Origin: an uncultured virus (IMG/VR IMGVR_UViG_3300037088_000888)
Taxonomy: Duplodnaviria > Heunggongvirae > Uroviricota > Caudoviricetes
IMG/VR virus record: IMGVR_UViG_3300037088_000888
Direction: 5' to 3' (one strand)
DNA: 64,000 nucleotides
The notes under the pieces were generated by a model, which was not told where the DNA came from, ran no database searches, and saw only the letters and a list, made by a program, of their open reading frames with translations. Positions 19,199-56,336 of the stretch are shown piece by piece. Position 1 is the first letter of the stretch. Each line of letters begins with the position of its first letter. Position numbers and translations under genes: made by a program.

Positions 19199-19918
19199 TT
19201 ATGCATTATAATTAACAGTATTAAAATTTATTTTACCACTACCATTTGGACGATTTTTAAAATATAAAGGATATTTTTTAGATTGTAACATTAATCCTAA
19301 TTCTGGAAACATGTCAATATGTACAACTCTAATGTTTTCAATTTTTTTCAATTCATAACCACGCTTACGCATTTCGGCATTTAAATTAAAATCCCAAAAT
19401 TGTGTTTCATCAACAATCCATGAATTAATTTCTTCAACAACTTTTCTTCTCTGCATATTAACGCATGTCACAATTTGTGAATCTCCAAATATAATACCTT
19501 CATAATCAATTTTATTTGATATTTGTAATACATTAGTAACACCATTTCTTTTAAGCATTAATTGACCGATTTTTGGGAATGCATCCATGATTTTAACCAT
19601 GTTAGCCAAAAAATGAGGAGTAATCGGAACAGCATCATTGTCTTGCTGAATTACGTACTCACAATCTTCATCAAGATTATCATAACCAAGTTTTGTACCA
19701 CCAAAATCACCAAGATTTTCATTAGAATAAATAGGTTTTATTTTATAATATCCTTCTTTCACCAAAGATTTTAGCCATTCTCTTGTACCATCGGTACTTG
19801 CTTGGTCAATCATTATTACTTTGTAATTATCGTAACCTGCTAAACGATCTATTTCTCTTAATGTTAAAACGCTGTATTCCAGACGGTTAAAACACCTCAT
19901 TAAAAAGTTCACTCTCAT
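19199..19918 (-). CDS. Family 2 glycosyltransferase
   Basis: FNRLEY, IDQASTDGT, QDND. Confidence 0.8.
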   Translation of the reverse strand: MRVNFLMRCFNRLEYSVLTLREIDRLAGYDNYKVIMIDQASTDGTREWLKSLVKEGYYKIKPIYSNENLGDFGGTKLGYDNLDEDCEYVIQQDNDAVPITPHFLANMVKIMDAFPKIGQLMLKRNGVTNVLQISNKIDYEGIIFGDSQIVTCVNMQRRKVVEEINSWIVDETQFWDFNLNAEMRKRGYELKKIENIRVVHIDMFPELGLMLQSKKYPLYFKNRPNGSGKINFNTVNYNA

Positions 19919-20823
19919 ATGCCTTTATTTATTAAATAATTATAATATTTTTTAAATTTCTCTCTTTTACGTAGTAATCCAATCTCACTATTTTTATAAA
20001 TCAATTCATATAAATTTATAATTGATGTTTGTTTATTAATTCTAAATAATGAGCATTTTCCATTTTTATTTACTCTATTTTTTATTATATATTCTATTTT
20101 ATTTTCACTTAAATAATTTGCAAATGTTGACCAATCATAATTATATGTTGAACTAAATTCTACTCTTCCGCTAATGTTTTTATATGTTTTATAGGTTGTA
20201 TTTATACAGCCATCACCATCAAACAAACCCAAAATAAATAATGACTTTAAATGCTGCGGAATAATATTAAATATTTTATTGAAATTAGTTTTCGATTTAA
20301 TATCGTAATTCATAATTTTAAAAAAATTAAATAACTCAATCGAATATGATTTAATCAGTTTTTGATTTCTAACTTGCTTTTTATTACCAAATTTATCAAT
20401 GGAATAAACAGGAATTGAGTTACTTATTGTCCAAACATTACCATTTATTTTTTTTACAATATTATTAAATAAATACTCAGCATCTTTTTCAACTAAAGAT
20501 ATTGATGATTTATGTGTATTTCTTTTTATTATGTTGCCATCTGCCCAAAAATAACCTAAAAAATATGCAGTTTCTGGAGTTCTTGGATTTATATATTCTT
20601 CTGGAGAATATTTTTTAAAATTATTTTCTTGTTGTGACTTAGATTGTAATTCTCGTAATTTTTGCTCAGAAACTTTAAGACCTAATGATTTTGCTTTTCT
20701 AAAAATAACATATTTTGATATATTTAATTTTTTAAAACAAAATTTTAATCCTTCATTAGAATAATTTGCTAATAAAAAATTAGTTTCGTCTTCATTCCAT
20801 ATTTTTCTAACAGAAATGTTCAT
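19915..20823 (-). CDS. Free-standing double-motif LAGLIDADG homing endonuclease
   Basis: AYFLGYFWADG and FILGLFDGDG; C-terminal LLRKREK. Confidence 0.85.
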   Translation of the reverse strand: MNISVRKIWNEDETNFLLANYSNEGLKFCFKKLNISKYVIFRKAKSLGLKVSEQKLRELQSKSQQENNFKKYSPEEYINPRTPETAYFLGYFWADGNIIKRNTHKSSISLVEKDAEYLFNNIVKKINGNVWTISNSIPVYSIDKFGNKKQVRNQKLIKSYSIELFNFFKIMNYDIKSKTNFNKIFNIIPQHLKSLFILGLFDGDGCINTTYKTYKNISGRVEFSSTYNYDWSTFANYLSENKIEYIIKNRVNKNGKCSLFRINKQTSIINLYELIYKNSEIGLLRKREKFKKYYNYLINKGI

Positions 20824-22214: not shown

Positions 22215-22529
22215 TTATTGCGTTTTAAATGCGGTTAATATTGCTTCATAGTCTCCTTTGACCTTAGTTAAAGGGAAGGGTATGCGTAAAAGTGTGCCGT
22301 CTGGTATGTCAAACTCGCTCACAAACTGACCATTAGCATACATTATAAAGAAGTCATAAAATGGATTTCCATAATATTTTTGGCTAAGTTTATCCATCCT
22401 GCTAAAATCTGAATTCCAATATTCATATTTATCACTCGGATTTACAGGTAAATTAACATATGGCATCGCATCAACAGTGCCATCACCATTTCTTAATATT
22501 GCATATCTGTCATAATCTATATTTGGCAT
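22215..22529 (-). CDS. Small baseplate protein (gp53/tail-X/LysM-like)
   Basis: RMDKLSQKYYGNP..IMYAN...IPDGTLLRIP. Confidence 0.65.
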   Translation of the reverse strand: MPNIDYDRYAILRNGDGTVDAMPYVNLPVNPSDKYEYWNSDFSRMDKLSQKYYGNPFYDFFIMYANGQFVSEFDIPDGTLLRIPFPLTKVKGDYEAILTAFKTQ

Positions 22530-22637
22530 AATGGTATATAATAATATTTTATTTTATAAAGGCATTATCTTTATTGGGTTTATCACAACCCTCTATTGAA
22601 TATTATTGGTTTTAACCAATCGTTTCCAATTTCTTTT
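22530..22637 (-). ncRNA. Orphan copy B of a tnpB 3' end/omegaRNA-like structured element
   Basis: Aligns closely to 31174-31292 with conserved hairpins; ends TATACCATT immediately before the ATG at 22529. Confidence 0.6.
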
Positions 22638-22727
22638 ATTTTTATCCGAGCATGACTCAAACTTTTTAATTAATATTAAGTTTTCAGCCAACCTTACTCA
22701 TTGCCATATTATTAATATGGGTCTTTT

Positions 22728-22735
22728 ATAAATAC
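22728..22735 (-). promoter_or_regulatory. GTATTTAT candidate late promoter
   Basis: Same motif precedes many structural genes on their coding strand. Confidence 0.55.
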
Positions 22736-22777
22736 TTTAATTTTTAAATTTATAAACATAATTAAAAATTTTTAAAT

Positions 22778-25700
22778 TTATCTTCCTATTAAAAGATTTT
22801 GTATTACAGTATTAGTTATCAGTTTTACTGTATAATCATCATAACTTCTACCTAATGTTTGTTGTTCAGCAGTCAATATTTGTTTAATAAATGACTCTTG
22901 TTTATCAGCCTCACTTGAAGGCAACTTATACATACCAGCATTTGTAAATGAAGAGTTTGCATAATAATTGAAAGTAACTGCATTCTGCAAAGCATCGATA
23001 GGACCTTTCAATGACTGACCACCAATTAACTTCAATTGTAATGTAACTTTTGCTAACATTGGTTGCATGCCAAAACCTTCTGGGTTCATATCCCAAGTAG
23101 TATCAGAATAGTCAACTGTATAGTTTTCAATTATAACCTTTGTGTAGAAAAAGTCACCTACTCTAAGAATACATATTGGCTGACGACCAAACACTGAATT
23201 TCTTGCTGTTAAACTACCACCTCCTGTAGCATTTGTGGGGTCAGGACTATTCCATCTTTTTGAAGCACCTTGTCTTTGACATTGGTGTAAAAATGTTAAC
23301 CTTTTATGCATATCTTCAGGTGTTTGGCTATGAAATACGGGATAATAATAATTACCACTAATTGAATCAAAACCATGAAGAATTCCTGTATCAGTAGTAC
23401 CGTTTGCAGTAGTCGTTCCTCTCTCATTTAATACACAAGATAAGCTGGTTTTTATTTGTCTGATCTGAGTCTTGGTAGCTTCAATTTGTGATTGTAATTT
23501 TGCAATATTGGTTGTGTCTGTTGGACTTAAATCTGCCTTTACTGGTGGTAACGTTCTACCATTCTTATGAATATCAATTTCTGCATATCTCGCTTGTTTA
23601 GTTTCTTTATATGGAATAGCTGCTTTTGTAGCAGTACTATCGCTTGCCTGAACATCACCAACGCTTTCACCAAGCACAGTATCCCAAGTAACTTCAATAT
23701 TATCACCAATGGATTGTCCAAACATTGCAACCAATTTTGCTCTTACTAAAGCCTGTGCTGCTTGTGCTCTTCTTTCACCTAATGCCTCATTATATTGAGT
23801 CCCACCAGCAGATAAATATAATTTTGATGCAGCACCATGAATATAAACACTATAAACTATTCTATTATTTTCATCATTAAAAATATTAAAAAGTGCATTA
23901 TTTAATACATTTTGTCCCTCTTGATCAGTGAGTCCTGTTGCTGTATATTGAGAAATTGATGTTGGCGTTAAAGTATATGTTTGGTTTCCATTAACAATTG
24001 CAGATTTTGTTATACCTGTTTTAAAATAACTATCAATATTTAACCCCCAACTTGTAATATCTGATGAAGGTAATCCATCGTAAATTTCATAAGTATATTT
24101 TGTATATAAATCATCAATAATTGTATTAAGATTATCATTTACTGAAGGTACGTCATTTGGAAATACAATTGTAATTTTTGTTTCTGGAAGATCATTTGGT
24201 TCTGCAGGTTTTGTTTTTCCTTTAATTGTTTCAATATCACTTTGTAATTTGGCAATTTTGAATTCATAATTTTCAATTGATACAAATTTATCAATATATG
24301 GGTCACCGCCAAATGCAAAAAACTCAGCAATTTCTCTTTGTTTGCCTGTCGTATTAGCATAATTCTTTAATTGCTGTGGATAATCAACAAGTAATGTAAA
24401 ACTAAGTGTTGCCCCTCTTTCTGAACTTATATAGTTATACATTGGTTCATTTCTACCAATTATCATTGTTGGTTCGAATTTAGCACTACTTGTTTCCTGA
24501 ATTTCAAGATTATATGGAGGAAACCACATGATTCGCCCATTAAACGGACCGACCTCACACGCAGGTATTGGTGAACCATATTCATCATCAATAATACCAT
24601 ATGTATCTTTACTTAATACCCTAACTGCAAGATTTTCAATTGAAAACATTAAGTTTTTTGGATTAATTGTTCCGTCTTTCTCAAGTGTTGGATGAATACG
24701 TGGTATTACTGATTTATAAATTACAGAATCTTTATTTCCGCCATAAACCTGATTGCCATCAAATCTTATTGCTTTTGCAAATCTGTCATATTGATCTAAA
24801 ATACTATGTTGACGTACACCAGTTATGCCAGCAATATTATTATTGGGGTCACTTGCATATGTACTTGAATTAGCTTTCCATAATGCAGAACCGTTAAAAC
24901 CATCAACTTTCCCACTATTAGTAAATGCTTTTCTTGTCATGTCAACAACTTTTCCATTTGTTGCATTTAATAAATTTCGGGTATATTCTAATAATCCTGC
25001 ACGTATTTTATATTGACTGTTTATTGAGTTAGAAGGAGTTACTTGTCCATCAGCAGCATTATTTGTACCACGCAAATCATTAATATTATTATTTGCATCA
25101 GCAGTAATACCATCTCTACCCCAGACAAGTTTATTACTTATATTATCATTACCAAATTCTTTGTCATTATTAATCCAAGGATTTTGAGCATTATCATTCC
25201 AGACATTATTAGTATCAACTGTTTTTTCAGTATTACCAAAATTATTATCTATAAAGTCTTGATTAGGAGCATACTCAGGACTATCGCCTTCTTCATTAAT
25301 ATATGCAGTAATCATGCTTATATTTGCATTAGTAATTGAAATACTACTTTTTGCAAAATCATGTGATATATAAGCGTTAAAATATTTATTATCAAAATTA
25401 AAAAATCTTTTATCGTCTTGACCAGTACCTACTTGTTTGTCATTTCCACCTAAAACAATACCTCTCGGTAATATTTTTGCACCAGCACTGTTTGCTGCGC
25501 TATAAAGTGCGCTACTATCCAATTTACTTTCTTTATATATGTTTTTATTTATAGCATCATATAGTTTTCCTAATTGTCCAGCACCTGTATTATTGATATA
25601 ATCATCATTTGTTGGATTTTTAGTAAAAGGATTTTTGTTTGTTGGATTATTATATATTAGGTCATCGAGAAAATTTTGAAATCCTGATTGCGGTACTTTA

Positions 25701-26152
25701 GTTATTTTATAATCGACATTCTTTTTAAATAATTGTCCACCTTTAAGAAAACCGCCCAAATCAATTTGTGGTAATGTTTGTTGTGCAACATGCGAAGAAA
25801 AATTCATTGCAAATTGTTTACCTAACATCACCAAACCAATTTCGCTCAATGGTGTACTGTTACCAATAAGACTTGCAACTCTGCCAATTACTGTATTATT
25901 TAAGTCAAATCCTTGAAATGGAGCAAGTGCTGAACCAATACTACTAATAGCATTTACAACTTTTTGTACACTATTTGGACTAAGCGGATATTCAACATCA
26001 GGAGTATATAGATTTCTTGATTCCAGTACATTTCTTAAATTAGCTGAATTAGCCAATAATCTTGAATTCCCACCATTATTAGTAAGATCATTACTTGAAG
26101 TAGTGCCAGCAAAAATTGTTTGTGGTTGGTTTATGCTATTATCGTTTGCCAT
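22778..26152 (-). CDS. Large baseplate/tube-initiator-like protein with an internal OmpA-like domain
   Basis: Follows the tape measure gene; GAAS...YNEALGERRAQA...ARYAEI OmpA-like motif flanked by coiled coils. Confidence 0.55.
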   Translation of the reverse strand: MANDNSINQPQTIFAGTTSSNDLTNNGGNSRLLANSANLRNVLESRNLYTPDVEYPLSPNSVQKVVNAISSIGSALAPFQGFDLNNTVIGRVASLIGNSTPLSEIGLVMLGKQFAMNFSSHVAQQTLPQIDLGGFLKGGQLFKKNVDYKITKVPQSGFQNFLDDLIYNNPTNKNPFTKNPTNDDYINNTGAGQLGKLYDAINKNIYKESKLDSSALYSAANSAGAKILPRGIVLGGNDKQVGTGQDDKRFFNFDNKYFNAYISHDFAKSSISITNANISMITAYINEEGDSPEYAPNQDFIDNNFGNTEKTVDTNNVWNDNAQNPWINNDKEFGNDNISNKLVWGRDGITADANNNINDLRGTNNAADGQVTPSNSINSQYKIRAGLLEYTRNLLNATNGKVVDMTRKAFTNSGKVDGFNGSALWKANSSTYASDPNNNIAGITGVRQHSILDQYDRFAKAIRFDGNQVYGGNKDSVIYKSVIPRIHPTLEKDGTINPKNLMFSIENLAVRVLSKDTYGIIDDEYGSPIPACEVGPFNGRIMWFPPYNLEIQETSSAKFEPTMIIGRNEPMYNYISSERGATLSFTLLVDYPQQLKNYANTTGKQREIAEFFAFGGDPYIDKFVSIENYEFKIAKLQSDIETIKGKTKPAEPNDLPETKITIVFPNDVPSVNDNLNTIIDDLYTKYTYEIYDGLPSSDITSWGLNIDSYFKTGITKSAIVNGNQTYTLTPTSISQYTATGLTDQEGQNVLNNALFNIFNDENNRIVYSVYIHGAASKLYLSAGGTQYNEALGERRAQAAQALVRAKLVAMFGQSIGDNIEVTWDTVLGESVGDVQASDSTATKAAIPYKETKQARYAEIDIHKNGRTLPPVKADLSPTDTTNIAKLQSQIEATKTQIRQIKTSLSCVLNERGTTTANGTTDTGILHGFDSISGNYYYPVFHSQTPEDMHKRLTFLHQCQRQGASKRWNSPDPTNATGGGSLTARNSVFGRQPICILRVGDFFYTKVIIENYTVDYSDTTWDMNPEGFGMQPMLAKVTLQLKLIGGQSLKGPIDALQNAVTFNYYANSSFTNAGMYKLPSSEADKQESFIKQILTAEQQTLGRSYDDYTVKLITNTVIQNLLIGR

Positions 26153-26165
26153 TAATAGTTTTTTA

Positions 26166-26173
26166 ATAAATAC
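26166..26173 (-). promoter_or_regulatory. GTATTTAT candidate late promoter
   Basis: 13 nt upstream of ATG 26152. Confidence 0.55.
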
Positions 26174-26201
26174 TTGTAATATGAATTTTAAAAAATAGAA
26201 A

Positions 26202-28733
26202 TTATTGGTTCACATTTTGGGTACGTAATTCTTCCTGATGCGTAATTGCCGTATTTGCTTTAAAAATTTTATTCATAAATCTTTGACCGTCAATATTTAA
26301 AGTAATATCATTTGCAAGTTGAACGTTTTTATCTGCAAATTCTACTTTTAATGGAGTTTTTAATAATGATGCTATTTGTGCAAATGCTGAACCACCTTTA
26401 GTATTCATAGTTGAAATCGCATTAACAGCATTTTCAACAGCAAGAAAATCTTCTTTACTACCATGCATAACAGCATTAATTTCCTTAAATGCTTCACCAA
26501 CTTGAGCTATTGCTTCAGAATTTTTTGCAATTCTATTTAATGTTGCAGAAAATGCAATTAAGCCTAATCCACCAACAGTAAATAATGCCATACCTGCAGC
26601 CATTGCAGCAATACCACCACCTAATTCCAACATATCTTTACCAGAACCTTTAGCTGAAACAGACAATTTAGAAAGACCTTCACCCATAACTCCAATACCT
26701 GCAGCAGCAGCACCAATACCTACACCAACTAATGCAACTGCACCACCAAATGCCAAGAGACCGGGGGCAGCAGCCGTTGATGCACCACCAAATAACATAA
26801 TTGCACCCGCAACAGCAGCACCAATTCCCACAACTATTGATATTGATTTAACAATACTTCCTAATGTTTTTGCCTGTTCTGGAGTTAATTTAGCCATTGC
26901 AGTAGCAAGTAAACTAATACCTGCAGCAGCAGCACCAATACCAGCACCTACACCTAATGCAGCAGCACCAATACCAGCACCTGCACCAGCAAACATTTTT
27001 CCTTTTCCAGCCATTGCAGCACCTGCACCTATACCTCTGCGTTGATCAGCCAAACCACTAAGACCCTTTTTACCTAAATCTTCAGCAACTGCTTCACCTT
27101 CTTTCCCAGCACCTTTGCCAAGAACACCACCAAGACCTCCACCTCCTCCACCACTAATTACTTTTCCTGCTCCTGTTACAAATCTATCAGCAACACGACC
27201 TAATCCAAGTGTTATAACTTTCCATACTCCACCTGCAGCAAGTAAAGTTAATGCTGCACCAGCTATACCTAAACCGCTTTTACTTAAAAAGTTTGCAAGT
27301 GGCACAATTGTAACACTCATTACTTTATTAATTGTAGTTAATAATGGTAATAATGATGCTTTAAGCATTTCTATAGTAGCCTTGAATGTTTGATCAAATG
27401 TCATTGCTTGTTCAGCACGTTCCTGTAAAGTTTTTCGTTCCTGTATAAATGAATTTGTCTGATCTGAAGTTAAAGTACTAATGTCTTTCATAGTACCACC
27501 AAGAGATACCTGAAGTTGATTAGTCTTTGAATTTAATACCATTGCACCAGTAATCCACTCTTTTTGTTTAGAGGTTAATCCTTTACCACCCATTTGTCTT
27601 TCAGATAAATCTAATTCTGCACGTCTTTGTGCAATTTTAGTCATTTCTTCAGCACTAATACCAAGTGCTTTACCTGCTTGTTCAAGTCTCTGTCTATCTG
27701 CAGGACTTATAAATTTTTCAAATACACCTTCACTATTTTTTTTAAAGGTAATAATACCTTTAGTCATTTTTGAAATTTCTTCCTGCCATTTTTCTGGTTC
27801 GTTACGAGCTAAATAAAACGCTTGAAACGGGTCAGTCTTTGCAAAATTACCACCCATAACCTGTAAATTTGCAAACATATCAATAGCACCTTCAAGACTT
27901 TTTGCAATTGTTGCAGAATTAAGTGCAGACTCTACACTAACTTGTAATTTTTCAGCATTTTCAGCCATTTTAGCTATACCCTTGACACCGGAAACAAAAC
28001 TAAATGTATTTACTTTTTTAAAATTATCTATAATATTTTTTAATACTTTAGTTGTATTAACACCCATTCTTTCTGAAGTATCAACAATACCCTGTGTATA
28101 ATCCATTGCAGATTTAGCATCAGCACCCATAAATTCAAATTGCGCTCCAAGTTTTGTTGCCTGTTCAATACCCAGACCAGTACCTTTACCAATTAAAGTA
28201 ATATCTTCAAGCATACTTGCAGTTAAAGCACGTGCTCTACCTGTTTCATCAGCATATCCTTGTTGAATTGTTTGTAAATCGGCAAGACTTCCGCCTATTC
28301 TGGCTGCAAATACTGCAGATTTTTCAAAAGCTGCTCGCATTGCTTCAGCTTTTGCACCACTCATTCCAAGATTAAGAATGGTATTTTTTATTGTTTTATC
28401 AGATTCTTGTAAATATCTCCAACCTTCTTTTATTGCATTACCCAAATCTCTGGCTAAACTAACAACCTTTTCCCTACTTTTTTGTTGTTTAACTAATTCT
28501 TCATTAATACTCTTTTCATTAGCAATTGCCTTATTTTGTTCGTTAACAAGGTCTTGTAAATATTTCTTTTGATCATCTTCTAAAGTGGCAGCATTAGACA
28601 ATAATTCATTAATTACTTTTTGTCTTTCACTAATAAGTAATTGGGTTTTACTTCTTTCACTTTCCGACTCATTAAGTCGTTTTACCAAATCAAGTGATTT
28701 CTGATATTCGTCAACTGATCTTGCTGTTGCCAT
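26202..28733 (-). CDS. Tail tape measure protein
   Basis: 843 aa, helical, Ala/Gly-rich hydrophobic C-half, downstream of a chaperone-like gene. Confidence 0.8.
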   Translation of the reverse strand: MATARSVDEYQKSLDLVKRLNESESERSKTQLLISERQKVINELLSNAATLEDDQKKYLQDLVNEQNKAIANEKSINEELVKQQKSREKVVSLARDLGNAIKEGWRYLQESDKTIKNTILNLGMSGAKAEAMRAAFEKSAVFAARIGGSLADLQTIQQGYADETGRARALTASMLEDITLIGKGTGLGIEQATKLGAQFEFMGADAKSAMDYTQGIVDTSERMGVNTTKVLKNIIDNFKKVNTFSFVSGVKGIAKMAENAEKLQVSVESALNSATIAKSLEGAIDMFANLQVMGGNFAKTDPFQAFYLARNEPEKWQEEISKMTKGIITFKKNSEGVFEKFISPADRQRLEQAGKALGISAEEMTKIAQRRAELDLSERQMGGKGLTSKQKEWITGAMVLNSKTNQLQVSLGGTMKDISTLTSDQTNSFIQERKTLQERAEQAMTFDQTFKATIEMLKASLLPLLTTINKVMSVTIVPLANFLSKSGLGIAGAALTLLAAGGVWKVITLGLGRVADRFVTGAGKVISGGGGGGLGGVLGKGAGKEGEAVAEDLGKKGLSGLADQRRGIGAGAAMAGKGKMFAGAGAGIGAAALGVGAGIGAAAAGISLLATAMAKLTPEQAKTLGSIVKSISIVVGIGAAVAGAIMLFGGASTAAAPGLLAFGGAVALVGVGIGAAAAGIGVMGEGLSKLSVSAKGSGKDMLELGGGIAAMAAGMALFTVGGLGLIAFSATLNRIAKNSEAIAQVGEAFKEINAVMHGSKEDFLAVENAVNAISTMNTKGGSAFAQIASLLKTPLKVEFADKNVQLANDITLNIDGQRFMNKIFKANTAITHQEELRTQNVNQ

Positions 28734-28767
28734 TAATAATAAATTTTAGTTATATAATATAAATACA

Positions 28768-28798
28768 AAAGATCGAGTTTTTTATTATCTCGATCTTT
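28768..28798 (-). terminator. Hairpin (AAAGATCGAG/CTCGATCTTT) followed by a GTATTTAT motif at 28759-28766
   Basis: 10-bp perfect stem between the chaperone extension and the tape measure gene. Confidence 0.5.
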
Positions 28799-28811
28799 CT
28801 ATTATTTTATT

Positions 28812-28985
28812 TTATCTTCTTCTATTTGCTTTTCTTTGTGCCTGATCTTGAAGTTTTTCAATTTCTTCATTTTCTTTTTGTAATAAATATAAAAAGTGTC
28901 GTCTACGATATATGGGTATATTTTCTATATAATCTGCTTGAAACTTAGCGTGCTTGGTCAATATATATATTTCTTCGTTGACCAT
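28812..28985 (-). CDS. 57-aa ORF; probable -1 frameshift extension of the tail assembly chaperone
   Basis: Not in the ORF track. MVNEEIYILTKHAKFQADYIENIPIYRRRHFLYLLQKENEEIEKLQDQAQRKANRRR; frame is open back to the slippery site at 29015-29023. Confidence 0.7.
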   Translation of the reverse strand: MVNEEIYILTKHAKFQADYIENIPIYRRRHFLYLLQKENEEIEKLQDQAQRKANRRR

Positions 28986-29002
28986 CTTTTTATACTCTGA
29001 CG

Positions 29003-29917
29003 CTAAGTTCTTGGGAAAAAAAAGTCTACGCCCACAGCTAAAGTTGCAGTAAATTTATAATTATCTTTTGTTATAAATTCATATGCCATATCAACATCAG
29101 GACTTACAGTTAATATTTTTTTACGTATCACATAAGCATCTAATGCTGGCATTGCATCAACAAATTTATCGATGTATGTTCTATCTGTTTTATCATCAAT
29201 TGCAACAATATGTGCTTTTAATTTCATGGTACTATATTCATTAATTTCACTGTGATATGCTTCTTTAATAGCTTCAGCTTTTTTTGAAATTATTGTATCT
29301 TCCCCAGAAGTAAGTAACCTGAGAGTAACTTTTTTCTTACGCATTATAAGATCAACAAAAAAATGACCAGCTTGATCAGGTAGTTCTTCAACCTCTTTAT
29401 ATTGTAATTTTAATAAATCAACTACAGTATTAAATGGTATGCCTGTTCTTGGGTCAGATACTGTAACGGTATAATTGGGACCGTAACTTGAACAGCGTAA
29501 AAATAAAATAATTGCATTCCTATCACCTTCCAATAAATTATCAATTATTACTCCGTCTGTTTTAATTTTTCTTTTAAGAAGCATATTAAGAACATTTCCG
29601 CTATCAATTAAAGAAGGGGTTGTTAATAAATCTTCATCTTTTGAAGTCATGTATTCAACATTAACTTGAGAAAGACCATCTGGATAAAATACACCTTTTG
29701 AGGGTAATTTTACAATTTCATACGAAGTCATCAAATCGGGGTCAGTTTCTTTGGACATCGTTTTTTCAAACTCCTGTGGATTAAAATTTGATTTTGGCAT
29801 TGTAGGAATTGCCATTGGTCTGTTTTCATTATCAGAAAGACCATGTTCTTTTTTGTACTTTTCTAATGACGCAGCTATACTTTCTTTTTGAGGTGCGTTT
29901 TCTAATTCGTTTGCCAT
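29003..29917 (-). CDS. Tail assembly chaperone/baseplate hub assembly protein (T4 gp26-like)
   Basis: VKLPSKGVFY, MTSKDEDLL, GDRNAI; ends DFFFP; directly upstream of the tape measure gene. Confidence 0.65.
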   Translation of the reverse strand: MANELENAPQKESIAASLEKYKKEHGLSDNENRPMAIPTMPKSNFNPQEFEKTMSKETDPDLMTSYEIVKLPSKGVFYPDGLSQVNVEYMTSKDEDLLTTPSLIDSGNVLNMLLKRKIKTDGVIIDNLLEGDRNAIILFLRCSSYGPNYTVTVSDPRTGIPFNTVVDLLKLQYKEVEELPDQAGHFFVDLIMRKKKVTLRLLTSGEDTIISKKAEAIKEAYHSEINEYSTMKLKAHIVAIDDKTDRTYIDKFVDAMPALDAYVIRKKILTVSPDVDMAYEFITKDNYKFTATLAVGVDFFFPRT

Positions 29918-30085
29918 AAAATTATAATTTTTTATACTTTATTATTATTGTTTCGATAAATACTGCAAAAAAAATTTTTTAAAAATAATTCAAGATTTTT
30001 AATTAAAATACGTATTAACATATAATGACTATAGATATAGTCACAGAATTATATTTATAGTCAGAGAACTAAATAAATAGTCATA

Positions 30086-30376
30086 ATGGAAGCAAAAATT
30101 TTGGTAATATATATTGGTATTGGCGGTATTAGAAGCGAAGATATTGACACTTATATGAAAAAAGTAACAAAAAAAATCACACCAACTACTTTTGAAGGCG
30201 AGATTATCGTTCTGCCAACACAGTTATTGGTAGCACCAGATACAAGAATTGAATGTATTAATCCTATTTATATTACTGATGTTGAATTGGTAAAACAACA
30301 TACAATAATGATAAAAAAATTACAAGATGAATTACAAATTCAACTTGATATATTAAAACAAAAGAACAATGAGTAA
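30086..30376 (+). CDS. Hypothetical protein
   Basis: ORF with ATG, overlapping the next gene. Confidence 0.55.
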   Translation: MEAKILVIYIGIGGIRSEDIDTYMKKVTKKITPTTFEGEIIVLPTQLLVAPDTRIECINPIYITDVELVKQHTIMIKKLQDELQIQLDILKQKNNE

Positions 30377-31118
30377 AAAATTAAGAGTGGGGATTGACAT
30401 TAACGAAGTCCTACGTGCAAAATGGTTTCAGTTTGATAAATTTTATATAGAAGAATTTGGTGAAGAAGGTGCTCCAAAAGGACAACCATATGTATATGAT
30501 TATTTCAATTCATATGAATTTAAAGACACTGTTGAAGTGGGTAAAGAATTAAAAGAACCTGAAGATATGCCACAAAATATCAATCCTCTGGACTATCAGA
30601 TAGATGAAAAACTTGGTGAACCACCAGCAGATATCTTTTTATTTAAAGCACCTGTGAAAACTGAATTAACAGCAAGAGAAGTTTATAATCGTTTTATAAA
30701 TCAGGATTTTCTTTTTGAAATTCATGGTGCTGCAGCAATGATGTATAGAAATATGGATGTAGATGTTAATAAATTTCTTGAAAAATATCAGAAGTTTGCA
30801 GACTTTACAGTAGTATCGATTGAAAATAAATTTACAATACCACCAACAATGTTTTTCCTGAGTAAAATATCTATGAGATTCAGAAATTACAAATTTGTTG
30901 ATTATGCAAGTGAAATGTGGCAACACATGGACGTGTTAATAACAAGTGACCCTGCAATTCTTAGTAGAAAGATTCCTTGGTTTAAAAAATTAATCAAAAT
31001 AACAAGACCTTACAACGAAAATATAACTGCAGGGTCAATTGAAGTAAAGCAAGTTGCCAATTTAATTGACAACAAAATTTTCGAAAAAATAATTAAATAT
31101 AAAACGCATTTAATATAA
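30369..31118 (+). CDS. HAD-like 5'(3')-deoxyribonucleotidase-related protein
   Basis: VGIDINEVL, DVLIT, RPYN. Confidence 0.45.
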   Translation: MSKKLRVGIDINEVLRAKWFQFDKFYIEEFGEEGAPKGQPYVYDYFNSYEFKDTVEVGKELKEPEDMPQNINPLDYQIDEKLGEPPADIFLFKAPVKTELTAREVYNRFINQDFLFEIHGAAAMMYRNMDVDVNKFLEKYQKFADFTVVSIENKFTIPPTMFFLSKISMRFRNYKFVDYASEMWQHMDVLITSDPAILSRKIPWFKKLIKITRPYNENITAGSIEVKQVANLIDNKIFEKIIKYKTHLI

Positions 31119-31135
31119 TTATTTAATGTTTCTAT

Positions 31136-31292
31136 ATTAACGCTGACATTAATGGTAGTATTAACATATTAAGAAAAGAAATTGGAAACGATTGGTTAAA
31201 GCCAATCCTATCCAATAGAGGGTTTGTGGTAGACCCAATAAAGGTAGTGCCTTTATAAAATAAAACATTATTATAGTGTTTTATATACCATT
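31136..31292 (+). mobile_element. IS200/IS605-type tnpB 3' remnant with right-end hairpin (copy A, omegaRNA-like)
   Basis: 31136-31258 translates to INADINGSINILRKEIGNDWLKPILSNRGFVVDPIKVVPL* (TnpB RuvC-III NADxNG motif), followed by the hairpin TAAAACATTATTATAGTGTTTTA. Confidence 0.75.
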
Positions 31293-31343
31293 AAATATAA
31301 AAAATAAATAAAAGAAATAATATTAAATATAAAAAATAAAAAA

Positions 31344-32591
31344 ATGAGTGAAGAATTATTAAACAATGAAGCACAAAAAGCTGAATTAGAAAAAATTGAA
31401 AAGATCAAAGTATCTTTAGCTAAAATTACAAATAAGAAATCAAAATTCTTGTTTTGTATACCTGAATCACAAAGTCCAACAGCTTCTGTATATGAACTTT
31501 ATTTTCATGCTACAGTCGTAAAAAACATGGGATATGAGGTAGTTATTATGGTTGAAAAAGGTGATTATGTTCCACCTGTTTGGATTGAAAAAGAATTAAC
31601 AAATCATAAACATGTATCAATGGCAGACCCTAAATTGACGGTAGGTCCTGAAGACGTAATGGTAATTCCTGACATATATTCAAATGTTATGGAACAAACA
31701 AAAAAATTACCTTGTGTAAGAATTGGTTTTTTACAATCGGCTGATTATATGACTTCGGCTCTAATCCCGGGCACAGACTGGACATCATTTAATATTCAGG
31801 ATGTTATTACAACCTCACCAGTACTTAAAGAATGGCTTGAAACATTTTACAGCAAAGGTAAATATAATATTAGAACATATAATATTGGTATTCCAGATTA
31901 TTTTGAAAAATCAGACGTACCTCAGAAACCAATAATATCCATTATGGGTAGAAACGCAAATGAAATTTCAAAACTTGTAAAACTGTTCTTTGCTAAATAT
32001 CCTCAATATTCTTGGGTAACTTTTGACCCAATGTTAACAAAAAGCAAACCACCACAGGCAATGCGCAGGGTTGATTTTGCAAAAAGATTACAGGGAAATT
32101 TTGCTGCAGTCTGGGTTGATAGAATTTCATCATTTGGTACATTTCCACTTGAATGTATGAAGTCTGGAGTTATTCCAATTTGTCTTAAACCAGATATTAT
32201 GCCAGAATATATGCTCGAAAGAGATGAAAAAGGTGTTGCAACTAAAATTGTTGAAGGTGCTGGTATCTGGACAGAAAATTTTTATGATCTTCCAGTATTA
32301 ATTGGTGAAGTACTTGTTAAATTTCTTGATGATGCAATAAAACCTGAATTATATGAGAGTATGAGTAATGTTGCAAGCAAATATTCTCAGGAAGCAAGTG
32401 AAAAACGTCTAAATGAAATTTATGGTGAAATAGTTAATCAAAGAATTGCACTTTTTAACAGTGCACTTCAACCAGTTCAATCAGTTATACCCTCAACACC
32501 AGTAGCAGTAGCAATATTAAGTGGTGATACTGTACAAATACCAACGCAAACGGTTGATATATTATTACCACCAGTTAATGAAGAAAAATAA
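31344..32591 (+). CDS. GT-B fold glycosyltransferase-like protein
   Basis: VMVIPD, SSFGTFPLECMKSG (ExFG/E-like motif). Confidence 0.6.
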   Translation: MSEELLNNEAQKAELEKIEKIKVSLAKITNKKSKFLFCIPESQSPTASVYELYFHATVVKNMGYEVVIMVEKGDYVPPVWIEKELTNHKHVSMADPKLTVGPEDVMVIPDIYSNVMEQTKKLPCVRIGFLQSADYMTSALIPGTDWTSFNIQDVITTSPVLKEWLETFYSKGKYNIRTYNIGIPDYFEKSDVPQKPIISIMGRNANEISKLVKLFFAKYPQYSWVTFDPMLTKSKPPQAMRRVDFAKRLQGNFAAVWVDRISSFGTFPLECMKSGVIPICLKPDIMPEYMLERDEKGVATKIVEGAGIWTENFYDLPVLIGEVLVKFLDDAIKPELYESMSNVASKYSQEASEKRLNEIYGEIVNQRIALFNSALQPVQSVIPSTPVAVAILSGDTVQIPTQTVDILLPPVNEEK

Positions 32592-39199: not shown

Positions 39200-39832
39200 A
39201 TGATACTAACAGGAATATATAAAATATTAAATAAAATAAATAATAAAGTTTATATTGGTAGTGCTACCGATATTAGAAAAAGATGGCGTGATCATAAATG
39301 GTATTTAAATCACAATATACATCATAATTCACATTTACAATCTTCATGGAATAAATATGGTGTTGAAGCATTTGAATTCACAATATTATTGGAATGTTCA
39401 ATTGATGAATTATTGGAGAAGGAGAAGGAATATACATTAAAATATAATTCTTTAAATAATAATTGTGGATATAATGTAAATGAACCACAAAAAGTCTTTT
39501 TAAACAGAAAATGTTCTGAATTAACAAAGAAAATTTCATCAAAACGTATGTTAGGTAAAAATAATCCAATGTTTGGTAAATTTGGTATAGAACATCCTAA
39601 ATTCAATATAAGTCCTTCAATTAAAATGCGAAATCATTTGTCTTTAATAAAAAAAGGAATACCAACCCATAGGCGAACGCACGTTAAATTAATACCAAAT
39701 GATATTATTAATATACGTAAAATGTATAATGAAGAAAAAATTTCACAACCTAAAATAGCTGTAAAATATAATGTGTGTTGTACAACAATAAATCAAATAA
39801 TTAATAATAAAATTTGGGCTGACGTAAAATAA
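39200..39832 (+). CDS. GIY-YIG homing endonuclease
   Basis: GIYKI...VYIGS...RWRDH; NUMOD-like GKNNPMFGK; C-terminal HTH. Confidence 0.88.
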   Translation: MILTGIYKILNKINNKVYIGSATDIRKRWRDHKWYLNHNIHHNSHLQSSWNKYGVEAFEFTILLECSIDELLEKEKEYTLKYNSLNNNCGYNVNEPQKVFLNRKCSELTKKISSKRMLGKNNPMFGKFGIEHPKFNISPSIKMRNHLSLIKKGIPTHRRTHVKLIPNDIINIRKMYNEEKISQPKIAVKYNVCCTTINQIINNKIWADVK

Positions 39833-43611: not shown

Positions 43612-45474
43612 ATGAAAAATGCTATATTAAATGTGATAAAGGATAATAAAGGAAATATTCAAACACGTAGAATTACAGAATCTTATTTTAAGAAAAATTA
43701 TTTTGAATTATATTTTCAAATAAATAATTCATTTGATTCGTCATTATCATTTAATGCTAAACTCTATCTGATATATAATGAAATAAACGAAAAGCCAAAA
43801 TGTGTTATTTGTGGAAATGATGTTAAATTTAAAAAATTTAGTCAGGGTTTTTCAAAATATTGTTCAATGAAATGTATTGGAAATGACCATGAAGTACAAA
43901 TAAAAAGAGAAAACACTACTGAAAATTTATATGGTAGTAAACATATATTAGCATCGCCAAATTTTATTAAAAATATAAAAGAAACTAATCTAAAAAAATA
44001 TGGTGTTGAATATCCGCAACAATTAGAATCAATTAAAGAAAAAACAAAACAAACTAATATAGATAGACATGGTGTTGAATATCCGCAACAATCAGAATCA
44101 ATTAGAAAAAAAACAATAATAACAAATTTATATAAATATGGTGTTGAAAATGTTAATCAAAATAATGAAATACGTGATAAAGCAAAAAAAACTAAACTGA
44201 AAAAATACGGTAATGAAAATTATAACAACAAATTAAAAACTAAAAATACCAATCAAGAAAAATATAATGTTGATTTTATATTTCAATCAAAATCTATTCG
44301 TGATAAGATAAAAAACACTAATCTAAAAAAATATGGATTTGAACAATCATCACGAAATAAATTAATAAAGGAAAAAATAAAAAATACAAATATAGAAACA
44401 AAACAAATAAATGGCAAATCTTTTTGGTCAAAAAAATTAAATTTGAATAATACTGATATTAACTATAATGAATTTGGTGAAATTATTATATCAAATTTAT
44501 GTAAAATACATAATACGTTTATAATAAGTAAATCATTATTAAAAAATCGTTTAAGAGAAAATATTGAAAATATTTGCACGCAATGTAATCCTATTAATGA
44601 AAATGTATCAATTAAGGAAAACGAAATCCGTGATTTTATTGAAAACGAATTAAATATAAAAACAGAAAAAATTAGAATAAATAATAGAGAAATAGATATC
44701 TACATACCTGATCATAAATTAGGAATCGAATTTAATGGTTTATATTGGCATAGTCATTTATATAAAGATAGTGATTATCATTTGAATAAAACAAAAGAAT
44801 GCGAGAAACAAGAAATACAACTAATTCAAATATTTGAAGATGAATGGGTTAATAAAAAAGAAATTATTAAAAGTATTATTAAAAGTAAATTAGGATTAAT
44901 TGAAAATAAAATATTTGCAAGAAAATGTGAAATAAAAGAAATCAATAATAATATATGTAAAGAATTTTTAGAAATTAATCATATTCAAGGTAATATTAAC
45001 TCATCCATCAAGATAGGTTTATTTTATAATGATGAATTAGTTTCGATTATGACATTTGGTAAAAAACGTGCAAGTTTAGGGAGTAAAAATATTAATAATG
45101 AATATGAGTTATTACGATTTTGTAATAAACTTAATACTACAACTATTGGCGGAGCAGATAAATTATTAAAATATTTTATAAAACATTATCTGCCAAACAA
45201 TATTTTAACTTATGCCGATAGAAGGTATTCACAAGGAAATTTATATAAGCAATTGAGATTTAAATTTATAGGTAATACTAAACCAAATTATTGGTATTTT
45301 AATAATAAAACAAAAGAATTAAAAAGATATTATAGATATTCATATAGAAAGAATATTTTAATTAAACAAGGATTTGATATACAGAAAACCGAACATCAAA
45401 TTATGGAAGAAAGAGGATATTTAAGAATTTATGATTGTGGACATATGAAATATGAAATGTTTTTAAAAAATTAA
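43612..45474 (+). CDS. Putative homing endonuclease (Zn motif, KYGV repeats, Vsr/DUF559-like nuclease, GNAT-like C-terminus)
   Basis: CVIC...YCS..C; repeated TNLKKYGVE; EIDIYIP..LGIEFNGLYWH; IFEDEW; LRFCNK..GGADKLL..YADRRYS. Confidence 0.7.
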   Translation: MKNAILNVIKDNKGNIQTRRITESYFKKNYFELYFQINNSFDSSLSFNAKLYLIYNEINEKPKCVICGNDVKFKKFSQGFSKYCSMKCIGNDHEVQIKRENTTENLYGSKHILASPNFIKNIKETNLKKYGVEYPQQLESIKEKTKQTNIDRHGVEYPQQSESIRKKTIITNLYKYGVENVNQNNEIRDKAKKTKLKKYGNENYNNKLKTKNTNQEKYNVDFIFQSKSIRDKIKNTNLKKYGFEQSSRNKLIKEKIKNTNIETKQINGKSFWSKKLNLNNTDINYNEFGEIIISNLCKIHNTFIISKSLLKNRLRENIENICTQCNPINENVSIKENEIRDFIENELNIKTEKIRINNREIDIYIPDHKLGIEFNGLYWHSHLYKDSDYHLNKTKECEKQEIQLIQIFEDEWVNKKEIIKSIIKSKLGLIENKIFARKCEIKEINNNICKEFLEINHIQGNINSSIKIGLFYNDELVSIMTFGKKRASLGSKNINNEYELLRFCNKLNTTTIGGADKLLKYFIKHYLPNNILTYADRRYSQGNLYKQLRFKFIGNTKPNYWYFNNKTKELKRYYRYSYRKNILIKQGFDIQKTEHQIMEERGYLRIYDCGHMKYEMFLKN

Positions 45475-53547: not shown

Positions 53548-54084
53548 TTAATTAAATATTATATTGCTTCTTAATGTATTATACGCAACCCTTGCCCAAT
53601 CAATAATTTGATATCTTGAATCAACTCCTGCGAGTTGTCCCACTGATGTTACAGTACCTGCACTTGTTAATGTACCGCTTACTGCTGTTGTTGGTGCAGA
53701 ACTTACTGTTATTGATGGCATTACTTCAACAGCTATTTTTTGTCTATTATTAGAATCAACCGTTCCGTTTGATTCCATTACATCAATTAATCTTCTTAAT
53801 AATATTGCTTCTTCTGAACGTTTCGTGTCTTGAAGAATATCATCATAAAATATTTCCAATGCATCATAATTATTCATTGCTGTTGTATTATATCCTAATG
53901 TAACAATATTATTAACAACTGTTGCTGTTAATCCTGTATTATTAAATTGATATAATACTGGTTTTGCAGAATTACTTACATTTGTTATCATCAACAAACC
54001 TTGTAGATATACTAAAGTATAATCATTAAAGACAATTGTTTTTGCTGCTGCGTTAAAATTATAATTGGTTATTAGTAATTTCAT
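53548..54084 (-). CDS. Hypothetical fibre-associated protein
   Basis: Coupled ORF between two fibre-like genes. Confidence 0.5.
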   Translation of the reverse strand: MKLLITNYNFNAAAKTIVFNDYTLVYLQGLLMITNVSNSAKPVLYQFNNTGLTATVVNNIVTLGYNTTAMNNYDALEIFYDDILQDTKRSEEAILLRRLIDVMESNGTVDSNNRQKIAVEVMPSITVSSAPTTAVSGTLTSAGTVTSVGQLAGVDSRYQIIDWARVAYNTLRSNIIFN

Positions 54085-56336
54085 GACATTGCTATTTGAT
54101 ATGCAATCATATTATTATTTATTTGTGCTATACATGAAATAAATACTTGTGTTTGTAAAAAAGAATTGGCTAAATTACCGCCAAGACATAATGAATTTCC
54201 AGCAGTTGTTGCGCATACTGCTGTACCACCAGATAACAAATAACCTGCAGCTAATACTCCATTTAAACAAGTTGCATTAGTAGCAGTTATTGTACTGCCT
54301 GTATTAAGATAGTATGCACTTAAATGATTATTTAATTTATTTGAGTCACTTGCACAAGCAACAGTAATAGTAGAACCTGTATTAAGATAATATGATGCAG
54401 ATTTATTATTTAATTTTGCTGAATCTGCTGCACAAGCATTTATGCCTAAGAAACAAGAAGGTACACATCCATAAAGAGCTAGTGAATTTATACTTGTTGA
54501 ACCAGTATTAAGATAATAAGCAGGTAATTGATTATTTAATTTAGCACTATCACTTGCACAAGCATTTACTCCAAGAAAACAAGTAGGTACACAACCGCAT
54601 AAACCCAATGAATTTGCTGCAGTACTGCCACTTAAAAGAAAACTTGTTGGTACGCATCCACAAAGATTTTTTGCACCGACTGCACAAGTTGCACATATTG
54701 CAGTACTACCTGTATTAAGATAATATGCGGGTAACTTGTTATTTAATTTTGCTGAATCGGCAGCACAAGCAGTTGTACCAAGAAAACACGATGGTGAACA
54801 GTTACAGAATATTGTTGAACCAGTATTAAGATAATATGATGCACTTTGATTATTTAATTTTGAACTGTTAATTGCCGTGTCACCTGACAAAAGAAATGAA
54901 GCAGGTACACAACCACAAAGATTTTTAGCACCAACTGCACAAGTAGCGCATATTGCTGTACTACCAGATAATAAAAATGATAATGGAACACAACCACATA
55001 ATGCTTTTGAATTAATACTACTTGTCGAACATAATGCTGTTGAACCCGTATTAAGATAATATGATGCACTTTGATTATTTAATTTTGAACTATTAACAGC
55101 AGTTCCACCTGATAAAAGAAAACTTGCAGGTACACAACCACAAAGTGCTTTTGAATTAATAGAACTTGTTGCACAGATAGCTGTACTACCTGTATTAAGA
55201 TAGTATGTAGGTAATTTATTATTAAAACAAGTTGAATTTACAGAATTAGTCGCACAAATAGCTGTACCACCTGATAATAAGAAACTTGCAGGTACACAAC
55301 CACATAATGCTTTTGAATTAATACTTGAAGTTGCACATATCGAAGTACCACCACTAAGTAAAAATGATGCTGGTACACAACCACATAATGTCAATGAATT
55401 TATTGCAGTTGTTGCACATATTGCAGTGCCACCACTTAACAAATATTGATTATGAGTGTGTCCAGTGTTACTTTTACCAGCTAAAGCATTAACAAGTCCC
55501 GTTACTTGATTTTGAGTAATTGTAATTCCTGATTGTTTAAAATGAATTGTTGTATCGCCCGTATGTGAAACAAATGCAATATTAGGTGCATAAATTCCTG
55601 TGTGGGTATGTCCAGTACTTGATTTTCCTGCTAAATCTAACACTAAATTAGTTACTTGTCTTTCTGCAATAGTTATACCACTTTGTTTGAAATGTATCGT
55701 AGAATCACTTGTATGCCCCGTTAAATCCGATTCAAGTGCATAGATATCTAAATTTGGTAAATTTGTAAGTCCACTATAAGGATGCGTATGTATTAAATTC
55801 GCTTTCTCTGATAATAAATTTGGAATTGTTGTACCAGTAAAAGCATTAAAATTGATGTTAGTAACACCAGAACCAGCAGCAATGATATTATTAATATTTA
55901 ATCCACTATCAACTAAACTACCGTTTGTAGTGATTGTTGGAATATTATTAATAATTCCATCAGCAATTTTATTGATTTTATTTTCGGTTTTACCACTAAT
56001 AGATTTGATATTGGTATTTAATGGTATTATTGTTTGAAATAATTGATTTAATGTAATATTATCTGATAATACTGTTGTTCCTGTTAATTGATTGTAATTA
56101 GTAACATCAATAATATTTGATGGTGATATGTGATTTATCCATTCTGATATATTATTTTCTAAATTATTAACAATTGTTGTTCCAACAACTCTCCAGAAAT
56201 AAATTGGTTGTATTTCATTCAGAATAAAATCAGAATATAATGATTGTTCTGTTCCACCTGTTGATGTATCAGAACTATTTTTTCTAATAATAGTGTTACC
56301 AAAATCTGTTCTATATATGTAATACAAATTAGTCAT
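54081..56336 (-). CDS. Tail fibre-like protein with His-Thr-His motifs and a Cys-rich repeat region
   Basis: Three HxH motifs; 7x LCGC, 7x YYLNTGST, 8x LLSG(G/S/D)T. Confidence 0.65.
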   Translation of the reverse strand: MTNLYYIYRTDFGNTIIRKNSSDTSTGGTEQSLYSDFILNEIQPIYFWRVVGTTIVNNLENNISEWINHISPSNIIDVTNYNQLTGTTVLSDNITLNQLFQTIIPLNTNIKSISGKTENKINKIADGIINNIPTITTNGSLVDSGLNINNIIAAGSGVTNINFNAFTGTTIPNLLSEKANLIHTHPYSGLTNLPNLDIYALESDLTGHTSDSTIHFKQSGITIAERQVTNLVLDLAGKSSTGHTHTGIYAPNIAFVSHTGDTTIHFKQSGITITQNQVTGLVNALAGKSNTGHTHNQYLLSGGTAICATTAINSLTLCGCVPASFLLSGGTSICATSSINSKALCGCVPASFLLSGGTAICATNSVNSTCFNNKLPTYYLNTGSTAICATSSINSKALCGCVPASFLLSGGTAVNSSKLNNQSASYYLNTGSTALCSTSSINSKALCGCVPLSFLLSGSTAICATCAVGAKNLCGCVPASFLLSGDTAINSSKLNNQSASYYLNTGSTIFCNCSPSCFLGTTACAADSAKLNNKLPAYYLNTGSTAICATCAVGAKNLCGCVPTSFLLSGSTAANSLGLCGCVPTCFLGVNACASDSAKLNNQLPAYYLNTGSTSINSLALYGCVPSCFLGINACAADSAKLNNKSASYYLNTGSTITVACASDSNKLNNHLSAYYLNTGSTITATNATCLNGVLAAGYLLSGGTAVCATTAGNSLCLGGNLANSFLQTQVFISCIAQINNNMIAYQIAMS

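Follow-up and report, generated by a model that had tools for sequence, protein, structure and literature searches.

In a 64-kb stretch of DNA from an uncultured virus of the Caudoviricetes (IMG/VR record IMGVR_UViG_3300037088_000888; hereafter the window), two short inserts, copies A and B, carry the 3' end of a tnpB gene without the rest of it. We conclude, with a probability of roughly 80%, that both are PATE-like, protein-less and non-autonomous derivatives of TnpB-only insertion sequences (IS) of the IS200/IS605 family that circulate in phages. The PATE-like features seen are the lack of an open reading frame (ORF), the short length (198 and 230 nt) and the retention of left-end words (11 and 15 nt) together with the right end; the PATEs of haloarchaea are reportedly related protein-less elements. 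What we observed directly is the homology to tnpB, the status of both copies as insertions, their left-end remnants, a covarying structure, and sister alleles in which TAATT precedes a perfect target. An initial annotation of the window had described the copies as orphan tnpB 3' ends with an omegaRNA region, and they do consist of the tnpB 3' end and the right end without a nuclease gene. It had also read the keeping of just this part as a sign of domestication. This view is not upheld, as the copies are complete miniature elements with left-end remnants and their sites are empty in sister phages; we saw no sign of domestication or of service to the phage.

The two homologous stretches exist where the initial annotation had seen them; as delimited here they span 31166-31292 (+) and 22530-22644 (-) and are mutually the best inverted match in the window. 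The inverted repeat comprises blocks of 59 nt at 88% and 55 nt at 89% identity, with which a MAFFT alignment concurs, and global alignment of the cores gives 81/92 identical positions (88%). A profile built from the same two copies returns them in nhmmer at E 1e-39 and 3e-29. The differences that had been noted as preserving base pairs are real: a U.G pair becomes U-A in the inner stem, a G-C pair becomes G.U in the outer stem, and GGGTT/GACCC in one copy corresponds to GGGTT/AACCC in the other. Both copies finish with TATATACCATT and split after one further common base (A); the differing 'guides' that follow are the flanks of two different insertion sites.

Judged by tblastn and translation, both copies are continuous with tnpB 3' end sequence. 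The remnant in copy A (31136-31258, +) comprises 40 codons and a stop, includes the RuvC-III motif NADING and translates to INADINGSINILRKEIGNDWLKPILSNRGFVVDPIKVVPL, which bears out the TnpB C-terminus that had been assigned to it. It is 85% identical over 41 positions (tblastn E 3e-16) to the C-terminus of a 412-aa ORF on L132, a viral contig retrieved by an IMG/VR pattern scan, which encodes a full-length TnpB with OrfB_IS605 and Cas12f1-like_TNB domains (Pfam); a PDB sequence search with this protein gave no match. Copy B is frameshifted by a 1-nt deletion and translates to IKEIGNDWLKPIIFNRGL followed by two stops; tblastn aligns it with the L132 TnpB over 17 aa (82% identity) and, in the shifted frame, over another 11 aa (73%). 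ORFs of at least 40 aa that touch the two elements are solely antisense or chance overlaps.

The window also contains an IS607-type pair at 60810-62581 (+), made up of a serine recombinase (60810-61409) and a 391-aa TnpB (61406-62581; both by Pfam). The statement that neither copy matches the end of this tnpB stands: its protein is 24% identical to the L132 TnpB and its 3' end has no hit to the covariance model R1 described below, which together rule out a link of the orphans to it, so that it is not the cognate gene. The recombinase (199 aa, with a MerR-type helix-turn-helix) overlaps the TnpB, which has HTH_OrfB_IS605, OrfB_IS605 and TNB domains and represents a second, unrelated TnpB lineage in the same phage.

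Comparison with sister phages gave the extent of both inserts. Element A (31095-31292, +) is a 198-nt protein-less mini-element homologous to L132 and composed of a left-end remnant, the last 40 tnpB codons and the right end, while element B (22530-22759, -) is a 230-nt protein-less mini-element, more decayed than A. Element A is absent from loci L005, L006, L007, L083 and other sister loci, with alignment gaps of ~198-250 nt. For element B, exactly 230 nt are absent from L085, L086, L087 and L088, the gap being clean with a register ambiguity of 6 nt (ATTATG). In the sister phages with empty sites the flanking proteins are 95% identical and the leaders at both sites are short. Site B reads ..TTTAATT ATGCCAAAT in the sisters; site A reads ..ATAATTAAATATAAAAAATAAAAAAATG, where the window has CGCATTT...TATATACCATT inserted, with a 13-nt repeat ATTAAATATAAAA at both junctions plus an additional leader duplication of ~32 nt. 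With the two-copy profile (nhmmer E<=1), 0/79 other site-A loci and 0/21 other site-B loci contained an element, a few of these loci being short upstream, and tblastn with the L132 TnpB found no full-length tnpB at site A or B in relatives. Both elements lie directly upstream of late structural genes and in the same orientation as those genes.

Several local changes accompany the inserts. Insertion A (31095-31118) alters the last codons of an upstream 249-aa ORF, whose stop now comes from the element (read by eye): the sisters end ..AAA TAT AAA AAA TAA, the window ..AAA TAT AAA ACG CAT TTA ATA TAA. The tandem duplication of ~32 nt (31290-31354; ATTAAATATAAAAAATAAA..) in the leader of the 415-aa gene downstream of A occurs only in the insert-bearing genome; it may have arisen as a by-product of repair, may restore a promoter or leader, or may serve self-protection. 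Element B has pushed the original start context of the downstream 104-aa gene 230 nt upstream (22713-22759, -), where the displaced start opens a 15-codon mini-ORF (MFINLKIKVFIKDPY, then a stop) running into the element, and the gene now starts directly after the right end of B (..CCATT ATG). The 104-aa ORF (22215-22529) has a weak match to phrog_7145, a baseplate wedge (E 6e-4).

The copies keep left-end sequence too and are not bare 3' fragments. In A, the left-end remnant spans the first 46 nt (31095-31140, +), with hairpin arms TTAATATA (31110-31117) and TATATTAA (31133-31140), and contains an 11-mer, TTTCTATATTA, that recurs without mismatch in the 3' arm of the L132 left-end hairpin, a 13-bp structure between the upstream gene and the tnpB start. 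Homology of A to tnpB picks up again at codon 372, past a putative deletion junction. In B, an exact 15-mer TTAAAGTATTTATAA (22726-22740, -) also occurs 19 nt upstream of the start codon of the resident tnpB on a near-identical contig (L215; see below). Copy B further contains a palindrome, CCATATTAATAATATGG (22704-22720, -), which reads CCACATTAATAATGTGG in C2, another gene-less copy on contig L223, with both arms changed and the pairing kept; it may represent either the hairpin of the left end or a stem at the 5' side of the RNA.

The right-end boundary is sharp. The pairs A/B, C1/C2 (both on L223) and L214/L215 each diverge directly past ..CAT(T/G), C1/C2 after TATGTACCATG(A) and L214/L215 after ..CATT, and the terminus of A has a motif, TTTA..(A/C)CAT(T/G), in common with L132, L195, L207, L214 and L215. 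If the right end stops at CCATT, the left flanks of A (31090-31094, +) and B (22760-22764, -) both end in TAATT, a candidate target or target-adjacent motif (TAM). This register was picked among 14 options at A (13-nt ambiguity) and 7 options at B, and C2 would fit TAATG. TAATT is found upstream of the L132 and L215 tnpB genes too, where the left boundaries were not mapped independently; from the two mapped and two unmapped sites, TAATT would be the putative TAM.

We then considered the structure that an RNA from the copies would adopt. In its minimum free energy fold, copy A forms four hairpins (31166-31300, z -5.35). The scaffold core (31170-31261, +; 107.7 bits with R1) contains a nested hairpin H1 (31181-31216), H2 (31220-31236) and H3 (31238-31256), and a predicted H4 (31260-31284) together with the terminus ATACCATT completes the right end (31260-31292, +). 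The core of copy B (22551-22641, -; H1-H3, 92.1 bits) folds weakly (z -2.35): its 1-nt deletion lies in H2, H3 is weakened, and downstream the 3' arm of H4 is deleted. The four-hairpin layout recurs in C2, L132 and the preserved part of C1, H4 being present in all three, and the resident element L215 has an analogous layout.

Model R1 covers H1-H3 and was built from six sequences. It aligns along its whole length at 34 places, among them all the full-length family 3' ends searched; within the window it hits only the two orphan copies. Across 33 distinct rows, standard pairs occupy 86.2% of cells compared with 61.7% in shuffles (0/500 reach the observed value), changes occur on both sides in 22/25 pairs, and slid controls pair in 32-53% of cells. 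Three of the four hairpins covary strongly in these 33 distinct family members. A codon-anchored count, which involves no model fitting, showed the H2 arms (a Gly codon plus two bases versus an Asn/Trp/Ser/Tyr codon plus CC) paired 5/5 in 16/16 distinct codon strings with six different arm sequences; the helix survives amino-acid changes. Because G.U pairs are frequent on the sense strand, an RNA rather than a DNA structure is favoured. By analogy, the structure would be that expected of an omegaRNA scaffold overlapping the tnpB 3' end, as outlined in the preprint by Meers et al. Judged from these folds, copy A looks structurally intact as RNA and could work given a compatible TnpB; copy B, in which the hairpin next to the guide is lost, is probably dead. 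Rfam gave 0 matches at gathering over the window and, at E<=10 on L004/L084, 8 weak matches, none of which overlaps an element; a tRNA or tmRNA reading of the elements was rejected.

The flanks that would serve as guides are AAATATAAAAAATAAATAAA for A (31293-31312, +) and ATGCCAAATATAGATTATGA for B (22510-22529, -), the latter being the first codons of the 104-aa baseplate-like ORF. TAATT followed by a 16/16 guide-A target was present at the empty site in 9/72 site-A sister loci, a count that excludes six loci whose match does not start from residue 1 and one with <60 nt upstream; in L007 the match extends to 21/21 (by eye, not computed). For guide B, TAATT plus a 16/16 target was present in 2/21 site-B sister loci (L085 and L086). 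The 16 nt past each right end have no meaningful other match in the window at <=3 mismatches, apart from a second target of A. This lies in the second, tandem copy of the leader (31322-31343, +), with a 16/16 target at 31325-31340, 32 nt downstream, and is preceded by ATATT rather than TAATT; the sister loci have a single leader copy at site A. The guides are aimed at the elements' own empty sites and at no foreign gene, which is the ordinary situation for a transposon of this type.

A metagenome pattern scan gave L223, a 2.6-kb contig with two more gene-less copies in the same orientation, C1 (cut by the contig end) and C2 (complete). None of the L223 ORFs has a homologue in the window or in any locus compared, so that the four gene-less copies (A and B, C1 and C2) occupy two unrelated contexts. 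The left architecture of C2 is that of B: AAAAGA, the palindrome CCACATTAATAATGTGG, then GCTGAAAAC, then ATAAAAATAAAAG joined to the scaffold. As this deletion architecture is shared by a copy in an unrelated contig, the B-type deletion is older than the insertions, and at least this form has moved as a short element. C1 and C2 have lost the stop codon but maintain H3, both of whose arms have changed: it reads AAAGG/CCTTT in A and AAAGGTG/CACCTTT in L132, but GAAGG/CCTTC and GAAGAT/ATCTTC in these two copies. Just past the right end of C2 (L223:316-260, -), at the end of a convergent ORF, a G+C-rich stem-loop (CCCGG CAATGT CCGGG) leads into a T-rich stretch and resembles a terminator.

Other searches returned no further orphans. 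Four IMG/VR pattern scans gave only the window's own contigs and full-length TnpBs (L132, L229 and L224), and one metagenome scan returned the L132 record again besides L223. The genome-contig scan gave 35 loci, none of them confirmed by nhmmer at E<=0.01, and hence neither a bacterial copy nor a clue to the host. Neither region gave a distant-mode blastn match in the phage collection, and a DNA search in five phage records found, besides copy B, short AT-rich chance matches only. The TnpB family itself is very large, with 7990/8000 scored candidates at E<=1e-30. Public data do contain cognate-type proteins: the closest non-self relatives are 64-75% identical, and 13/17 examined end in RKEIG[DN]xW.. 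like the orphans; the full-length family TnpBs inspected keep the RuvC acidic residues. A TnpB subfamily 52-54% identical to L132 (L135-L193, IMG/VR contigs of ~55-109 kb) occupies many different sites in roughly 100-kb viral contigs, with sharply defined element ends that start (G)GTAACTATATAG.. on the left and stop ..TATATAATTACC(A) on the right, and offers a ready data set for mapping the TAM and the ends of the clade. In the TnpBs of L132, L215, L214, L229 and L135, the region from the EESYTSK motif to NADING lacks CxxC..CxxC zinc-finger cysteines.

Two near-identical IMG/VR contigs extend the window. G001 (51 kb) has copy A at 100% identity, and G002 (112 kb) has copy B, whose flanks are the same there over the stretch compared; given their near-identical overlap of ~24 kb, G002 and the window would appear to represent one genome. 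Relatives of the 415-aa protein downstream of A were found in 89/92 candidate IMG/VR stretches, some of them in contigs of 349-363 kb listed as 100% complete, so that the window is part of an AT-rich phage genome of roughly 350 kb, of which the window, G001 and G002 provide ~163 kb for searching. A full-length TnpB of the orphans' family (427 aa), the resident TnpB, is encoded at G002:C1:105301-106584 (L215:1501-2784), ~81 kb beyond the window start, with its IDLG, EESYTSK and NADING motifs (RuvC D/E/D) intact. R1 hits the 3' end of this element end to end (27.7 bits). The element finishes on the right with ..GACATT, as comparison with the second copy L214 bears out; gene order downstream of the resident tnpB differs in G003 and G006, which gave no boundary mapping.

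Several points weigh against our interpretation of the copies as PATE-like derivatives. The cognate-type TnpB (tail RKEIGxDWLKP, RKEIGNDWLKPILSNRGFVVDPIKVVPL) was not found in the ~163 kb of window, G001 and G002, the resident TnpB has just 49% identity with that of L132, and the scaffold region of the resident element matches the orphans at 55-59%. A Y1 TnpA (PF01797) was found in 0/5 phage records, the search having detected it in control genomes, so that a mobilising enzyme is not apparent in the phage records; for non-autonomous members a Y1 TnpA is no prerequisite. The position of the left boundary is uncertain by 6 nt at B and 13 nt at A, the TAATT of L132 and L215 was picked in AT-rich intergenic DNA, and TAATT is frequent (387 and 375 per strand in the 64-kb window). 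The extra tandem duplication of ~32 nt at site A is unexplained by scarless IS200/IS605 insertion, and the covariation alignment was fitted to R1, which inflates the pairing figures somewhat. Finally, that the copies are transcribed in this phage is something we infer; a scan for sigma-70 promoters found 54 against 51 expected and was uninformative.

If the copies are such miniature derivatives, an internal deletion would have removed ~370 tnpB codons and spared the right end, roughly 26-40 terminal codons and a small piece of the left end. What is left would encode an omegaRNA scaffold of four hairpins ending ..TATACCATT, in elements that would have settled beside TAATT, just ahead of two late structural genes that run in the same direction. 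The guide would consist of the 16-20 nt past the right end, which match the element's own empty site by construction. The RNA might arise by read-through or from a local promoter and, given a compatible TnpB in trans, could direct cutting of the empty allele, either after excision or in a co-infecting sister phage; recombination after the cut would then restore or spread the element. Such use in trans is possible but hypothetical.

A related question is whether the orphans already work as trans-acting guide cassettes, loaded by the resident 427-aa TnpB, which would cut insert-free sisters at the starts of the 415-aa late gene and the baseplate-like gene and so lead to homing of the inserts or exclusion of competitors. 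We regard this as unlikely. A full-length TnpB with an intact D/E/D triad is present in near-identical G002, the resident 3' end repeats the arrangement of hairpins and R1 covers it from end to end at 27.7 bits, the resident element has ..GACATT at its right end and TAATT upstream of its tnpB start, and copy B shares 15 nt of the resident left end. Targets with TAATT and a 16/16 match are available in 9/72 and 2/21 sister loci, the window's second target copy has ATATT instead of TAATT, and with no TnpA found homing would be the only visible route of spread. Set against this, scaffold identity to the resident element is 55-59% and cross-use between such distant TnpBs is hypothetical, copy B has no H4 and a weakened H3, just two copies occur in ~163 kb, and the scheme would presuppose both expression and the union of G002 and the window in one genome. 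The points that tie homing or exclusion to the resident TnpB, namely the ..CATT terminus, the left-end word, TAATT upstream of each tnpB and the available targets, are circumstantial. Bolder, and in our view quite unlikely, is the proposal that, in a lineage without a visible transposase, omegaRNA cassettes lacking any protein gene are maintained and propagated solely as RNA-guided homing passengers, the resident 427-aa TnpB cutting insert-free sisters in trans at TAATT and target within the leaders of essential late genes. If it were true, the cassettes would amount to a gene drive and, as a side effect, would arm co-infecting jumbo phages against one another, and the ATATT beside the duplicated target would be a scar of self-protection.

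At the other extreme, the copies might be inert, drifting remnants of two full-length tnpB insertions that lost their genes independently and in place. Copy B, frameshifted, deprived of the 3' arm of H4 and weakly folded (z -2.35), fits such decay, as do the 12% difference between A and B, their left parts of unequal length, and the failure to find a cognate TnpB or a TnpA. However, C2 in an unrelated contig has B's deletion architecture, with the compensatory change in its palindrome and GCTGAAAAC and ATAAAAATAAAAG joined to the scaffold; C1 and C2 have kept H3 through changes in both arms although they lack a stop; and tblastn revealed no sister phage with a full-length gene at either site. 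We therefore consider plain decay improbable. More improbable by far is that the copies are cis-acting RNAs domesticated as leaders or regulators, or guides of the TldR type, and control the downstream late genes; the initial annotation had also envisaged domesticated leader RNAs and a TldR-like partner. Both copies are co-oriented with and directly upstream of start codons, and the right end of B abuts an ATG, a position that is accounted for by TAATT-rich leaders. Sister phages with 95% identical proteins lack the inserts and express these genes nonetheless, which makes a leader function unlikely. With respect to TldR, no TnpB-like ORF flanks copy A or B and no nuclease-dead gene lies nearby, the family members keep their RuvC acidic residues, the guides match their own flank only, and Rfam had no match. 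Two other candidates were set aside: for a miniature inverted-repeat transposable element, no terminal inverted repeats were seen by eye, no repeat search having been made on the inserts alone; and a T4-type promoter/stem-loop cassette is excluded because the tnpB homology accounts for the sequence.

The remainder of the window is AT-rich (24-36% G+C). It encodes tail sheath, tail tube and baseplate proteins, glycosyltransferases and several homing-endonuclease-like genes, and no tRNA genes were found in it; a PDB sequence search with the 415-aa late protein gave no match. Several classes of selfish nuclease occur in the genome, including a LAGLIDADG-domain ORF (19915-20823) and a GIY-YIG homing-endonuclease ORF (39200-39832). 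A pair of paralogous genes (43612-45474 and 57948-59654), 14.19 kb apart and 71-78% identical at the nucleotide level over several blocks, has 23-aa 'KYGVENPxQ'-type repeats (DUF7487) in both members; the second additionally matches Mom-like and REase_MTES_1575 domains, and the two may be mobile nuclease-like genes. Repeats also make up a 751-aa ORF (54081-56336, -), built of 81-nt (27-aa) units with a phage-tail-repeat match, and an 843-aa ORF (26202-28733, -) with Gly/Ala-rich repeats adjoins the baseplate hub gene.

Elements of this kind are known, and copies A and B are a well-documented further example rather than a new system or principle; the trans idea is already in print in the preprint by Meers et al. 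They provide a natural example of a modular TnpB/omegaRNA system in a phage, with empty and filled alleles, a scaffold supported by covariation and a very large parent clade, and the case can be used to ask whether guide-only elements are kept by nucleases encoded elsewhere in the virus. According to two preprints, PATEs often encode omegaRNAs that need TnpB in trans (Meers et al. 2023, 10.1101/2023.03.14.532601), and omegaRNA activity in trans is described for a mini-IS (Zedaveinyte et al. 2023). As PATEs are portrayed in the former, the present elements resemble them in being short and protein-less, in having the left and right ends of a TnpB element and an omegaRNA scaffold with a flank-derived guide, and in needing TnpB and transposase from elsewhere. 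They differ in residing in a phage of ~350 kb from peat-type metagenomes, where the PATEs covered there reside in bacterial or archaeal chromosomes, as well as in the lack of a Y1 TnpA in the five phage records searched, in being two copies only and in left-end hairpins that are poorly conserved between the A and B types.

The canonical TnpB-omegaRNA, in the same preprint's account, secures transposon retention by cutting the donor joint. With the ISDra2 or IS605-type system our elements share a scaffold overlapping both the right end and the 3' end of tnpB, a guide that begins at the right-end boundary and a target composed of a left-flank motif and the right flank; in contrast, their nuclease gene is deleted, their TAM (TAATT) is putative, and the parent TnpB clade has no CxxC zinc-finger cysteines in the sequences aligned. 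TldR systems, as presented in PMC10705468, likewise employ an omegaRNA-derived guide and occur in phages, whereas here no TldR gene stands beside the RNA, the family proteins keep the RuvC D/E/D residues, and the guides fit their own empty sites and not a host promoter. The free-standing homing endonuclease genes of large phages, as reviewed in PMC13565253, show a similar presence/absence polymorphism between sisters at conserved late genes and possible spread via cleavage of the empty allele in co-infection; in the elements reported here, however, recognition would be RNA-guided and the element itself contains no protein.

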